A DNA stretch of 64,000 nucleotides from Neocallimastix sp. 'constans' (Eukaryota), in NCBI GenBank assembly GCA_050613775.1, contig JBODTK010000011.1, positions 1,178,001 through 1,242,000 of the forward strand, given 5' to 3'. Both the position numbers and the translations under genes were made by a program. Below are positions 46,764 through 64,000 of the stretch, one piece after another; the stretch's first letter is position 1; each line of letters begins with the position of its first letter. The notes under the pieces were generated by a model. That model had not been told where the DNA came from. It saw only the letters and a program-made list of their open reading frames with translations, and ran no database searches.

Positions 46764-46845
46764 CGTCACCTGCAGGACTCGAACCTGCGCTCCCAAAGGG
46801 AAATGGCTTAGCAGGCCACCGCGTTAACCACTCCGCCAAAGTGAC
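46764..46845 (-). tRNA. tRNA-Ser(GCT)
   Basis: Cloverleaf: acceptor GTCACTT/AGGTGAC plus G, anticodon arm GTGGC-CTGCTAA-GCCAT, long variable arm TCCC-TTT-GGGA, T arm GCAGG-TTCGAGT-CCTGC; 82 nt. Confidence 0.97.
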
Positions 46846-46861
46846 TATCATAAATTCATTG

Positions 46862-47646
46862 TGTAAGAAATTGATATAAATTTTTATAATTTATTTCTAT
46901 TTCTTATTAATTAATAATTATTTCATAATTATTATTCTTTAAAAAAATTTATTTCATTTAAAAACAATTATACCAATTAATGTATTAATTGTTATATGAA
47001 AAAATGTATTTAATATAACTTCTGTATTATTTCATAGAAAAAATGTATTTAATAATTTCTGCATTATTTTATCCTTCTCTTTTTTATCCTTTTTCTTTTT
47101 AATTCTTTTAGTTATTAAAATCGGTTATTAAAGTTTTTCCGATTAATTATAATTGGTTTTATTTAATAACACGATGATCAATAAGTATAGATTATTGATC
47201 AAAAATCTTTCCAGTTTTTTCTTCTAATCTTTTTCTGGAAAGAATCATTGTTAAGATTAGAAAAATACATTTATTTTTGTAAAAATATAAATAGCTGTTG
47301 ATTTTCGTCTTTAGAAAATCAAGAGTTATTATTTTAAGAAAAATATAATAATAATAAAAGACATTAATATTCCAATTAATATAAAATAGTTATTTTAAAA
47401 TTTGTCAAAAAAATAATAAAATATTTAATAATAAAATAGATTAATAAAGTTCTTTTGATAAAAACATATTTTATTTCTCTTTCATTTAAGGTCTATTATA
47501 TTTTCTTATAATAAGCTCTAATTTTAAAGATAAGTATTAAATTCTTATTTTTATTTTAATTTTTATTTTAATTTTTTTTTAATCTTAATAGTTTAGTTAA
47601 TATTAATTATAAATAATAATCTCTATAATTTATAGAAATTATTACA
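46862..47646 (+). mobile_element. Solo LTR, family S, 16 bp upstream of the tRNA
   Basis: tgtaagaaat...attattaca with S motifs (gttaagattaga, caagagttattatt). Confidence 0.85.
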
Positions 47647-59144: not shown

Positions 59145-62100
59145 ATATAAATCATTTAATCAAAAATAAATTTTATTTCATCAAAATACTATTAATCATT
59201 CTAACTTATGATTATTTAAAAAAAAAAAAAAAAAAAAAAAAAAATTATTTTATATTATTCAAAAACATTTATTCTAGATAGTTTTATTTTTATACTTTAT
59301 TTTTAAAACTTAAAATTCATGTAATTTTTATTATCCAATGTATTAATTAAATTATCACTCTTATAAGTATTTTAGTTATAGTTTATTATTATAAAAGTTA
59401 GAATTAGAAATAGTTTAGATTTAAAGTAAAAGATTCGTCTGGCATCCGAATCCTAGAGGAGGACCATGTAACGAATCTTAAAAAATTAGAAATTAGAATG
59501 CTGGCATAGTGGTTAGTCACTATGACCTCAGCCTGAACCACTAGGGTTCGACTCACACCTTTACTAAAATTTTATATCATTTAAATTTTAAAGAATTTTT
59601 ATACTTCATTTCTGTATTTGTTTCTGTATTTGTTTCTGTATAAATTTCTGAAAAAATTAACAAAAGAAATTCTTAGAAATTAATAGAAACAAATCAGATA
59701 GAAATTCTATTTTAATTTATCTTTTATCATTATTTCTTTTAGATTCTTTTTAACCGAAAATAATCAATTTTTATGAAACTTTTTAATGATTTTATGGTTT
59801 TAAATTTTTATGGATTTAAATTTTGAAAAACTATAAATAGGAGTGAATTTCGCAGCCAAAAAAAAAAATATTCTAAAAATTGTGTTTTTATTAATTATTG
59901 AATTAATTAATAAGTAATTCGAAATATTACAATAGTTAATCTTTATAATTAATATTTTTAAATTTCTTAATTAATAAAACTATATTTTAAAAAACCAAAT
60001 TACTTATTAATCAAAAAGTGCTTACCTATTGTGTTACACTCTTTAAAACACGGATATTCCAATATTCGTTACACCATTAAGGAAAATCAATCTTTCAATA
60101 ATGAAATTTCTTTCAAAAATCAAGTTTATTTTACTTATAACAATCAATTAAATATTAATGAAAATAATAAAGAAATAGCAAATAAATATAATAAATATTC
60201 TAAAATAAATATAATTAAGAAGGTTAATAATAAATTGAAAGTTAAGCATAACCTAAATCAAGGTAATAATTTAACATATAAGAACAACATTAGTGTTACC
60301 AAGGTTAAACCAAAACTAGAAACAAGTATCTCAAACCACAATTATAAAAATTATAATAGTAAAACAGTTGTAGTATTAATTTCATTTGTCTTAAAGATCA
60401 TCATTTCCAAGTTTAAAATGAGAAAAATAAAGGCACATTCTCATGAATCAGATTTTTCTCCACCATATCATGTAAATACGAAGAATAATACAATTAACAA
60501 ACACTTTGTTGATGATAATTAATTTACTATTTAAATTAAAACGATACTGCACTGGTAGATTTTATAATCTTCGATTATTATTTACATTTGAATATACATT
60601 AATAATTAATTATAGTTATTAATAAATAACTTTAATTATAATAATACTAAATTTGGATATAAAATAAACTACTATAATTTTATTTTACATAACATTAAAA
60701 CTTTCAATTATTAAAATCAATTTTTTTATATCAATTTACCAAAATCTAATATTAAAATAATTATTAAAACTTTCAATTAATGAATTATTCTAATTAAAAA
60801 AAAAAAAAAAAAAAAAAAAAAATATTCAGTAGGAATCAATATTTGAGATTAATAATTTTTCTTTAAAATCAAAAACCTTAATTATATTATAATTAAACAG
60901 TTGAAAACAATCAACTTTTCCCTTCTTTTACATTTAATTAATATTCTCTACAAGAGCTATAATTAAAATTTTAAGATTTATATAGTTATTAAATTAATAC
61001 TAGTTAAAATTTAATAATAAAGTATAATTTATAATCTTAACATTTTCAACATTTCCAAATAGATTAATCAAAATTTGTTTAATATTATATTGAAAAGGAC
61101 GCTTTTCTCTATAATACTCTTTGATAATAAAATAATTATGATAAGGACGCTTACATAATTATTATCGTTAATAATAAACTAAATTGAATATTATGATATA
61201 TTCAATAGTTTAATTGATAAATTTTCAATTACAATTTCAAAATTTAGAAAATTATAAATTATAAATTTTAAAATTTCAAATTTCGACATTTAAAAATTTC
61301 ACATTACGAAATTTCAAAATTTAATAAAAATTATATATTCAACTATTTAATAGTAATTTTAAATTTTAATATATTTATTATTTACTATATTTTTAAAATT
61401 TTCAATAATTTCAAAGTTAATGGTAAAAATTGAAATGTTAATTTCAATTAAATTTCAAAATTTCAATTTCAAAAATTTACAAGGGAATATATTTTAAAAA
61501 TGGTACCACCACATTTCAAAATATTGAATTTCATAATAAAATTTTAATTTTAACAAATTATGACAAATTTTAAATTTCATTGAAATTGTCACTTAAAAGG
61601 TCTTCTCCAAAGGATTCAAGTGACCTTTTAATTCCTTAATTACTTTAAAAAAATTAAAAATTTTTTCTTTAATAACTTTAAAAATCTTTTTTTTTTTAAC
61701 AATGTTACACAAATCGTCTGGAATCCGATTTTTGTGGAAGGGCATTGTTAAGATAATAACTGAATTTCAATTCAATTTCAATTTCGATAATTCAGTTATT
61801 TGAACTTCAATATTAATAAATAATAATATAATAATTATTATTAAATTAACTTTATTAAAATATTTAGGAATTAGTCTAGGCCAACTAATTACTAAATATT
61901 ATTAACATATTGAAATTAATATATATTAAATAATGTAAACACGTGATTGTCATATTAAATTAATTTCTACATATTATATTTTAATTATTAAATATAGTAT
62001 TTAGCTATATTAGATTTTTATATTTTATTTATATTAAATATTTATATTATTATCTTATTTTATATTATCAATATCAAACTTATATTAATACTATTACATA

Positions 62101-64000
62101 TTCATATTAATAATTAATATTTTAATAATTAATTATTTTATATAAATACATGTTTAAATCTTTTGATTAATCCTTTGTAGGATTATTGTAATTTAAATTA
62201 TAGTAATAATTATATAAAATAATGTAATAAAATATTATTAAGATTAAATAAAATTTATATTTTAAATAAAAACTTAATTATAAGATTTACTAATAACAAT
62301 ATGTTTTAAATAAGAGTAAAATTAAATTATTAATTAATTACTATAATTTGGCATCTTGACCTAATCGTTAAGACCAAATTATCCTAAAAACTTTAACAAA
62401 TAATAAAATAAAATTTAATTAAAGTTAAAATAAAAATTATATAGTTTAAAATAATAATAAACAATAAAAAAAAAAATTAAAAATAAATAAATTAAAATAA
62501 GAATTATTAAAAAAAAAATGATAATAATAGTTTAGAGATAGAGAAAATAAATATAATTAAAAGGTCTTAGAGAGAGGCCTTAATTGAGATTTTTAGTTAG
62601 TAATAATTAGTAAAATAAAATAATAAAAGTAATGTTAAAAATGTAATTAATGTAAAATTTAAATAATTATAAATAAAGTATTAAATATATAATAATAAAA
62701 TATTTAAGTTTTATTTAATATAATTATTGTGTTAAAATTATTAATTGTTTTATTAGAATATATTAATTTTCCTCAAATAAAATATTGCAAGTCCCATAAA
62801 AGTATACGCTTATAAAAATATCGTATCATTTGTGATATGAAATAGGAATTTATCTTGTTTCCCATTTCATAACTATTATGATTTTTATACTTGTCCATAA
62901 CAAGTCTTTATATATTTAAATAATAACACTTAAATAAAAATATTTAATTCATTTTTAAATAAAATATTGTTTTATTAATATTCTAATATTTATAGGTAAT
63001 TAGTAAACCTTTAATACAATTCTTTTATAACATAATTCTAATAATCAAAATATAAAATTAATCAATAATAATTCTAATTTTATTAAAATATTATATACTA
63101 ATTTTACTGGATAATTAGGAACATTTATTAAAGTATTATTTCTAATAACTATTTATACTAATTCTTCATTTTAAAGTTATGTTTATAAACAATTATTTAT
63201 AAAATTATTTAACTATTTAATATTTATAATATATTTATTTCTTATTTTTCTTATTAACTTTATTTATATTAATTATTAATTAAATATTTCGTTTCTTATC
63301 ATTTGATAAATTTTAGAAATTATCTTAATTTTAATGTAGAATTAAAAAGTGATAATTTCTATTTATTTTAATAATAACTGTATAAGTTATTTATGAATTA
63401 AAAATGTTTTATTAAAAATAACACTAAAAATTGATTTATTAGAACACTTGTTTTCTAATATTTAATTTTATAAATCTTTTATTAAAATTTATTAAACATT
63501 ATAAAATTTAAAGTGATTATTAAAATTATAAAATTAATTAATTAATAATAATAATAATAATAATAATAATATTTACATGAAATATTTACAAGTATTTATA
63601 TTTTTCTTTAAAATTAAACTATTTATAATTTATAAATAAAAAGAATAATTAAATAAAATAAAAGTAATAAAATTAATAATAAAATAAATATTTAATAATA
63701 AAATAAATAAATTTGTTTATTATAAAAATAATTAAAAATATTTTGTTATTTAAATTAATTAATTTGTTATTATAAAAATATTATTTAATTATAAAATTAA
63801 TTATAAAAATTATTATAAAACTAATTATAAAAATTAATTATTTTATTTTAAATTTAATCTTAATATTTTTATTTTGAAAAATATATAATATTTCCTTCAT
63901 ATCTGAGTATTAATGTAATTTTTAAGTGTAATTTATTTGTTTTAATTAATTAATTAATTTTTTTTTTTATTTTATTAAATTATTATTAAACTTTGCTAAG

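Follow-up and report, generated by a model that had tools for sequence, protein, structure and literature searches.

Targeting of the DNA upstream of tRNA genes is already known as a behaviour from Ty3, Tj1 and DGLT-A, and the stack of LTR retrotransposons described here is probably a variant of it. Ty3 inserts ~15 bp from tRNA genes (PMC5006619) with a site use that depends on local sequence (PMC6673722), and its integrase carries, after the CTD, a vestigial chromodomain which contacts Brf1 (10.1101/2021.07.27.453949, PMC6673722). Tj1 of Schizosaccharomyces japonicus, a Tf1-related and self-priming element, targets tRNA genes (PMC4600332). DGLT-A inserts 13-33 bp upstream of tRNA genes (PMC5911963), and its RNase H and IN-NED bind the TFIIIC subunit Tfc4 (PMC5006619, PMC6101501). 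The preference for tRNA genes as targets has been interpreted as adaptation to a compact, gene-dense genome (PMC5006619).

The window, a stretch of 64,000 nucleotides from Neocallimastix sp. 'constans', has a GC content of 20.5% and consists almost wholly of repeats. Its sole tRNA gene (ARAGORN; Rfam), a tRNA-Ser(GCT) with an A box and a B box, followed 10 nt downstream by a T6 terminator, stands at the inner end of a right stack of at least 11 insertions from several families, which covers more than 17 kb at this one locus and in which LTR ends abut with spacers of 1-11 bp. This one-way stack before an intact tRNA-Ser gene is likely to result from repeated LTR-retrotransposon integration ~12-17 bp upstream, guided by the Pol III machinery, a reading to which we assign a probability of roughly 0.77.

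The likeness to Ty3 lies in the probable repeated landing before a tRNA gene, ~20 bp or less upstream of its mature 5' end. Unlike Ty3/sigma of S. cerevisiae, the S and F integrases are without the Brf1-binding vestigial chromodomain, two lineages are common to one site, the stack is at least 11 deep and longer than 17 kb, one lineage makes 4-bp duplications and the host is an early-diverging fungus. The S lineage resembles Tj1 in being Tf1-related and self-priming, in its position upstream of a tRNA gene, in its 5-bp duplication and in the clustering of retrotransposons around tRNA genes. However, Tj1 inserts 5-11 bp upstream, always in a single orientation, with a stop codon separating gag from pol, whereas S lies at ~16-17 bp in either orientation, its gag and RT sharing one frame. 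The preliminary description, made from the sequence alone, had called a self-priming lineage at the tRNA site unexpected; this was overstated and is not new, since Tj1 is already Tf1-related, self-priming and tRNA-targeting (PMC4600332). Shared with DGLT-A are the lack of a chromodomain and a position ~13-16 bp upstream of tRNA genes in either orientation (PMC5006619, PMC6101501), but DGLT-A resides in few copies in the gene-dense genomes of dictyostelid amoebae.

No account of tRNA-targeted LTR stacks in gut fungi was found in the literature searched; the TE tables of gut-fungus genome papers may hold a mention. The generalization to gut fungi given below, if true, would place tRNA targeting in a repeat-filled genome, counter to the view of tRNA genes as safe havens in compact genomes, and a multi-lineage case in a retroelement-filled region of an early-diverging fungus would test the idea of compact-genome adaptation. 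The case would also mean further independent origins of targeting to Pol III genes, by a tether that differs from that of Ty3. An element landing at a fixed harmless spot would constitute a natural site-specific integration system for anaerobic fungi, which have no established engineering tools (PMC6883316).

Organization of the stack

The LTR starts reported in the preliminary description (46862, 47650, 48232, 49177, 50186, 50752, 52271 and 62833) were all recovered, as were the spacers ctg, taaattctgta, ctcta, c, aattcctttg, ttct and tttg and, exactly as claimed, the 16-bp flank from the tRNA 5' end. Several members needed correction. The LTR taken as F-like does start as F but is fused to an X-type end (47650-48220). 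The one labelled S/F joins an S start to a Y-type end and contains an H-type LTR, nested 49 bp in. G at 52271, an LTR as stated, is a solo LTR interrupted by two nested elements, neither of which is at a junction. The stack does extend to 62833, but a further junction at 63301/63304 (Z end, tt, W) had been missed, and it may run on beyond the window. The list of members holds as given but leaves out 19 abutting junctions at 11363-40272, on the tRNA's other side, which have the same polarity and no adjoining tRNA. The tRNA-primed lineage had been taken to be K, but K is a separate solo LTR, and the tRNA-type PBS from 41094 belongs to M. A tRNA-primed lineage nevertheless enters the stack with G, whose PBS is seen in the relative L066. 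The possibility that K and M form one long LTR was rejected; in the independent contig L063, M stands alone between the PPT and its end and is directly followed by K-like LTR starts, as in the window.

Table 1. Position of the tRNA gene, stack members and source elements in the window.
Feature	Coordinates	Strand	Remarks
F-family pol, PPT, 3' LTR	6044..11363	+	
Further abutting junctions	11364..27981	.	spacers cttttt, ctttggtg, cttt, gttgctt, atgaa, cgcg, gtta; in part without explanation
Full-length S element	11370..18819	+	99.3% identity between LTRs; PBS self-priming; pol frameshifted; chromodomain absent
Left run of abutting LTRs	27982..40271	.	one flank (tttat + captured tg) explains it; same polarity; proximal end without tRNA
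M element	40272..46200	+	LTR 40272-41093; tRNA-type PBS; broken gag-pol cut inside RNase H
tRNA-Ser(GCT)	46764..46845	-	intact; proposed stack anchor; ARAGORN, Rfam 61.5 bits, A/B boxes
16-bp upstream flank	46846..46861	.	first 12 bases recur only at 48216-48227
S solo LTR, innermost	46862..47646	+	duplication cattg/ctgtg, 3/5 match
F/X chimera	47650..48220	+	start of F type joined to end of X type
Spacer	48221..48231	.	flank bases 6-12 + first 4 bases of K; 11/11 predicted
S1 solo LTR	48232..49171	-	duplication ctgta/ctcta, 4/5
S2 solo LTR	49177..50184	-	sits 4 bp into end of K; duplication 4/5
K solo LTR	50186..50741	.	followed by flank copy aattc
Spacer	50742..50751	.	flank bases 8-12 + ctttg (older flank, 17 bp state)
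S/Y chimera	50752..52266	+	start of S type joined to end of Y type
H-type LTR (I)	50801-51492		nested 49 bp inside S/Y chimera
G solo LTR, tRNA-primed family	52271..62828	+	split 51 bp inside by element H
H, self-priming, without pol	52322..62398	+	99.7% identity between LTRs; inside G; not at junction; duplication aataa
C, full-length chromovirus with chromodomain	53498..60073	+	1176 bp inside H; not at junction; duplication ccatt
Z solo LTR	62833..63301	-	perfect 4-bp duplication tttg; 2 bp into W
W LTR, outermost visible member	63304..64000	.	after Z end + tt

For S1, S2, K, S-left and Y, other copies in the window end at the same base. The F start at 47650 is supported by a PPT-adjacent copy at 10300 and by contigs from two sequencing runs that begin there, and the G termini by L066, with PPT and PBS. 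The full-length S element ties the S LTRs to their protein, and the F pol with its PPT and 3' LTR does the same for the F LTRs. All S/K-type copies in the window (14 of 14) have each of their surviving ends either at a junction of abutting LTRs or by the tRNA flank, for a chance baseline of ~1.1%, the fraction of the window that lies no more than 13 bp beyond a terminus.

An assembly artefact, or chance in such an AT-rich and repeat-filled window, could be suspected from its base composition, its repeats and the absence of a single contig spanning 46700-49050. We consider it highly improbable, as adjoining LTRs come from different families and the junctions follow a coherent duplication logic that is not expected from misjoins. 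Contigs of four runs over 46700-49050 (2,351 bases of the more than 17,000-base stack) gave no LTR-end flanks and no spanning record, and their depth does not represent a copy number.

Spacer sequences and order of insertion

The spacers contain copies of the tRNA gene's own upstream DNA, with which two of them begin, so that newcomers likely landed ~12-17 bases before the gene while older copies were displaced outward. The duplications reach into the starting bases of the neighbour on the outer side, which makes the inner copies the younger ones, and the insertion order across families can be read base by base. Each integration would duplicate part of the current flank, 5 bp for S and K and 4 bp for F, Y and Z; the new copy would displace the previous one outward and presumably be reduced to a solo LTR afterwards. 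The serial insertion of several families at the same site with outward push, already proposed in the preliminary description, is supported by the flank-copy spacers and the one-way polarity, and its interpretation as a whole was borne out in part.

The first 12 bases of the flank occur twice in the window (at the tRNA and at 48216) versus 0.10 expected, and 1 of 100 shuffles reached this count; with one mismatch allowed, the 12-mer is not enriched (4 versus 3.9), and a 7-mer part of it was found in 80 of 42,142 non-coding 16-mers. At an empty or shorter-stack site the flank is predicted to read tatcataaattc then c/a-tt. With one fitted register, the push-out model gave the correct base at 16 of the 17 positions of the next three spacers and at 8/10 in the outer run; the left run needs one 2-base slip (strict score 26/36). 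Across 18 intact elements, 45 of 70 duplication bases matched versus a permutation mean of 28.7 (p 5e-5), and 18/24 did so in the right stack alone (p 0.03), for duplication lengths and 27 junctions (from 199 motif candidates) that were hand-picked after viewing the data. The main count omits the three chimeric LTRs, with which it becomes 48/81. Captured bases are copied along the chain, hence the spacers are not independent.

Some observations went against the push-out model. For the innermost and supposedly youngest S, ctgtg was predicted and cattg observed (3/5). The distance of the X LTR would be 9 bp, so that the later flanks of 14 and 16 bp would need an aberrant 7-bp duplication or sister-allele recombination. 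The G/X-type LTRs failed the duplication test, with 4/20 bases agreeing across the two sides, which is the chance level. An origin of their odd proximal spacers as unprocessed PPT-side bases was unsupported, a single 3/4 likeness being found.

The reconstructed insertion distances were 15, 17, 17, 17 / 17, 12, 16, 16 / 14, 16 bp, the current flank being of 16 bp. They fall in the windows of Ty3 and DGLT-A, which we counted in favour of insertion at a Pol III site. One could propose instead that existing LTR ends, or a chromatin edge at such ends, attract the elements, a first copy having landed beside the tRNA a single time and the others having followed it. The comparison of a fixed anchor with a random walk starting at the preceding LTR end was not significant (p 0.13-0.14), so the step sizes do not reject the latter, L063 shows stacking without a visible tRNA, and 19/27 junctions are without a proximal tRNA; stacks away from Pol III genes, which the preliminary description had named as evidence against itself, are thus in part found. 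Despite LTRs in both orientations, however, growth was one-sided, with 11/27 spacers ending in tg/tgt/tgta and 0/27 beginning with ca/aca/taca, and in the anchored stack the growing side is that of the tRNA. Moreover, the distance stayed at 12-17 bp in 10/11 reconstructed steps at this one locus, and homing on LTR ends would leave the first landing at 15-17 bp to coincidence. Homing on LTR ends is therefore unlikely in our view. The possibility that the left stacks hide a Pol III gene was rejected, none being detected by Rfam to E 1 or by an A/B-box scan. Under Pol III-guided integration, LTR-LTR recombination would generate the chimeric LTRs, and probably deleted the anchoring tRNA genes of the stacks beyond the present tRNA.

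Searches outside the window

A metagenome scan with the S terminus returned 57 loci, all chance matches, none of which (0/57) resembled the window. Viral contigs held 4 distant gypsy loci and no match for S pol, F pol or the tRNA pattern. Prokaryote genomes gave no tRNA-Ser match, and the F/M alignment recovered 78 loci from them, 11 of which are AT-rich close relatives (L058-L068). No tRNA gene was present in the 82 loci scanned. The five assemblies behind the loci contained no S LTR; among 27 stretches there were 6 tRNAs, and no contig carrying one was related to the elements of the window. Across metagenome, prokaryote loci and these five assemblies, no tRNA-LTR junction was found outside the window.

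The generalization to gut fungi is put forward tentatively, at somewhat less than even odds: at least two deeply separate gypsy lineages without Ty3's chromodomain would independently target Pol III starts genome-wide through another tether, tRNA genes would seed one-way stacks of tens of kb recording bursts of transposition, and recombination within the stacks would delete tRNAs.

Lineages, priming and integrase domains

Two distant Ty3/gypsy lineages are found in the stack, the self-priming S and the tRNA-primed F/G/M clade, and the Ty3/gypsy order PR-RT-RH-IN is present with LTRs, PPT and PBS. S and F/M form separate RT clades (supports 100/100 and 100/98). In a 17-row set, whose tree is without Tf1, Tj1 and DGLT-A, the S RT falls in the Tf/chromovirus clade and joins Ustilago chromoviruses and the Tf2-labelled P0045 (100/99). 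The self-priming PBS of S is a 12-nt perfect complement to the LTR transcript, and its capsid, protease and RT share one frame (13623-16790). A chromodomain is absent from S, as the S integrase and 15 relatives end at most ~31 residues past the last CTD motif, and from F, whose integrase, like those of 16 F/M relatives, stops just past the CTD. Among S, F and C, an integrase C-terminal chromodomain was found only in the nested element C, which sits inside another element, whereas S/K copies sit at junctions. A putative tether to TFIIIB or TFIIIC would use a surface other than the Ty3 chromodomain, candidates being the SH3-like CTD of the integrase, an N-terminal extension or the RNase H, as in DGLT-A.

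The lack of the Ty3 chromodomain in both lineages is also compatible with the absence of any tethering factor, the open and flexible DNA of the Pol III start being a passive hot spot, or with the targeting of one family, the others arriving by recombination or duplication of stack pieces. The dependence of Ty3 site use on local sequence (PMC6673722) points the same way, as do the three chimeric LTRs and the repeated K-M neighbours, which indicate that recombination reshaped the region. Yet both lineages show intact duplications overlapping the neighbour's first bases (S2, S1' and Q; Z and F32071), which recombination would not make, and other families of the window (C, J) are not at the site. 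We regard these explanations as improbable, and favour tethered integration of both lineages by the Pol III machinery.

Within the window, families C and J do not use the stack site. The H family may have a second insertion window at ~66-68 bp.

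LTR elements stacked upstream of tRNA-Ser(GCT)

The window has a GC content of 20.5% (16-22% for gut fungus genomes in the accessible text of PMC6883316) and consists nearly entirely of Ty3/gypsy LTR elements, two of whose pol proteins are closest, among named relatives, to gene models from Orpinomyces (identity 59% and 78%); an anaerobic gut fungus is therefore the probable host. The preliminary description had reported LTRs abutting one another from 16 bp upstream of a tRNA gene, and this was confirmed, all LTR starts and spacers proving exact on re-inspection of the sequence. 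A further junction was visible, Z and W being separated by tt. The stack comprises nine units containing eleven insertions, designated by working family letters, some of which come from the preliminary description.

Features of the window, the stack being listed outward from the tRNA (youngest to oldest), with the implied distance of each insertion to the tRNA 5' end
Feature	Position	Distance (bp)	Remarks
tRNA-Ser(GCT)	46764-46845, minus		sole tRNA within the window; A box, B box, terminator
flank	46846-46861		16 bp
S	46862-47646	16
F/X	47650-48220	F 14 (same arithmetic), X 9	chimera
S1	48232-49171	16
S2	49177-50184	16
K	50186-50741	12
S/Y	50752-52266	S-left (start) 17, Y 17	S-type start joined to Y-type end
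G	52271-62828	17	interrupted by H (duplication aataa)
Z	62833-63301	17
W	63304 onward	15
I	50801-51492		second H-type LTR
H	52322-62398		interrupted by chromovirus C (duplication ccatt)
H, short ORF	52982-53512		no Pfam match
H, 40-bp tandem repeats	~54146-54350
C LTRs	53533-53588, 59502-59557		positions of the consensus A and B boxes in each LTR, 44 bp apart
F-family leader	4600-4790		four spaced repeats ending ttcgaacc/ttcgagc
pol to which F LTRs are assigned	6044-10276
full S element	11370-18819		S LTRs assigned to it; LTRs 972/979 identical; 12-nt self-priming complement
junctions 3' of tRNA	11363-40272		19, abutting LTRs
G/X-type LTRs	23683-26501		three consecutive; spacers atgaa, cgcg
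pol fragment in S-type LTR	27030-27640		related to L066
K immediately left of M	27982-28566, 32595-33365, 39711-40272

The F-like unit ends in tgtatca, whereas F-type LTRs elsewhere have the ends gaacc..aaca, and contigs of three runs diverge from it at 48081-48152; it is therefore considered a chimera. H, C, I and J (another window element) are nested within elements, none at junctions. H itself is young (LTRs 650/652 identical), self-priming and without pol.

Spacers and the order of insertion

If each element landed near the tRNA and duplicated 4-5 bases, each spacer would be made up of copied flank sequence together with bases taken over from where the outer neighbour begins. This serial insertion, proposed in the preliminary description, was supported in part. 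Exactly two copies of the first 12 flank bases exist in the 64 kb, one beside the tRNA and one at the X/S1 junction (0.10 expected; 1/100 shuffles); five of these bases also form the end of X, and the 7-mer left over is found in 80 of 42,142 non-coding 16-mers. Once its register had been set from the K spacer alone, where aattc corresponds to flank 8-12, the model predicted 16 of 17 bases of the following three spacers, and 8/10 bases in the W-Z-G-Y run. Among 18 intact window elements, duplications matched at 45 of 70 bases (against a permutation mean of 28.7, p 5e-5, and 19.7 at random sites), with lengths assigned per family post hoc, the data already having been seen, and three chimeras set aside (48/81 with them). 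Polarity was one-way, since 11 of 27 spacers end in tg, tgt or tgta and none starts with ca, aca or taca, these junctions being hand-picked out of 199 motif candidates by homology, PPT or PBS. For S2, Z and two other window copies (Q and S1'), one copy of the duplication overlaps the neighbour on the right and its counterpart is free.

Other results speak against serial insertion at the tRNA. The innermost S fits its duplication at 3/5 bases (predicted ctgtg, observed cattg). From X at 9 bp, later flanks cannot be reached except via a 7-bp duplication or recombination with the sister allele. The outer side of G/X-type LTRs fits the chain, but their two sides match at only 4/20 bases, and the data did not separate a fixed anchor from a random walk (p 0.13-0.14). 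The three consecutive G/X-type LTRs 3' of the tRNA are without matching duplications.

Junctions away from the tRNA

At the young end of the 19 junctions 3' of the tRNA, Rfam and A/B-box scans of the window found no Pol III gene. The run 27982-40272 follows a single flank (tttat plus captured tg; 26/36 strict, 13/14 allowing one assumed 2-base slip) and has the polarity of the tRNA stack, which fits an anchor lost or off-window, but is also consistent with a non-tRNA anchor. All 19 junctions share this polarity, and three of their spacers (gttgctt, cttt, tttattg) could tile a single flank, with overlaps of just 3 bases. In L063, a related contig locus without tRNA from another assembly, K-like LTR starts come directly after M (5248-6251); compared with the K-M order in the window, a stack segment may have been duplicated.

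No second tRNA-LTR junction was found among metagenome loci, prokaryote genomes, viral contigs and assemblies holding relatives of the window elements. AT-rich retrotransposon contigs closely akin to these elements occur in several prokaryote assemblies (L058-L068 and related contigs of G001-G005) and are probably fungal contamination.

Lineages at the site and a putative Pol III tether

In an RT-RNase H tree of 38 rows, with one short row left out, S was sister to C within a set including Ustilago chromoviruses and a Tf2-labelled protein (100/99). A separate clade was made up of F and M (100/100). The preliminary description had named K as the tRNA-primed lineage of the stack. Such a lineage is present, as G-type LTRs carry a tRNA-type PBS in L066, a contig of another assembly; M, however, is an LTR in its own right in L063, and K is therefore a separate solo LTR.

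A chromodomain was found in C only, and the proteins of S and F, like those of 15 and 16 relatives, respectively, stop shortly after the SH3-like CTD. Ty3 contacts Brf1 via a vestigial chromodomain behind the CTD (10.1101/2021.07.27.453949, partial text), so that a Ty3-like position is possible for S and F with a different contact. DGLT-A gets to the same range of upstream positions through RNase H and TFIIIC (PMC6101501, partial text). We consider it fairly likely (about 0.77) that the stack elements are tethered by Pol III factors through a putative contact surface. On the tRNA strand, a CA step is present in most duplications and is provided, after capture, by the LTR end itself; Ty3 sites prefer CA at the start site (PMC6673722, in part). 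Speculatively, the target site would renew itself by the CA of the captured LTR end.

Gypsy elements known to target Pol III genes are Ty3, Tj1, Tca8, Tyl3, Tyl6, Ylt1 and DGLT-A (accessible text of PMC5911963). Such targeting by a self-priming, Tf1-like lineage, initially regarded as unexpected, is already in print, since Tj1 is Tf1-related and, like S, self-priming (PMC4600332, partial text). Among the main texts searched, which took in few subscription journals, none described LTR elements linked to tRNA genes in gut fungi, nor did the accessible part of PMC8778642 mention them. New here are the host lineage, the sharing of a single site by two chromodomain-less lineages, the stack depth and a setting filled with repeats instead of compact (contrast PMC5006619, partial text).

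The repeats of the F-family leader resemble by eye a reversed B box and gave no match in the strict A/B-box scan of the window. The A/B-box pair of the C LTRs is unique in the window apart from the tRNA (0.04 expected by chance) and lies in a stretch folding into two hairpins with no cloverleaf; it may be a Pol III promoter of tRNA origin that was captured. The H-type LTRs at I and H are related (66% over 608 bp). Each lies within a stack LTR, 49 and 51 bp, respectively, from its tRNA-proximal end; had the host LTR been innermost at the time, the distances to the tRNA would be 66 and 68 bp, which possibly mark a second insertion zone (n=2).
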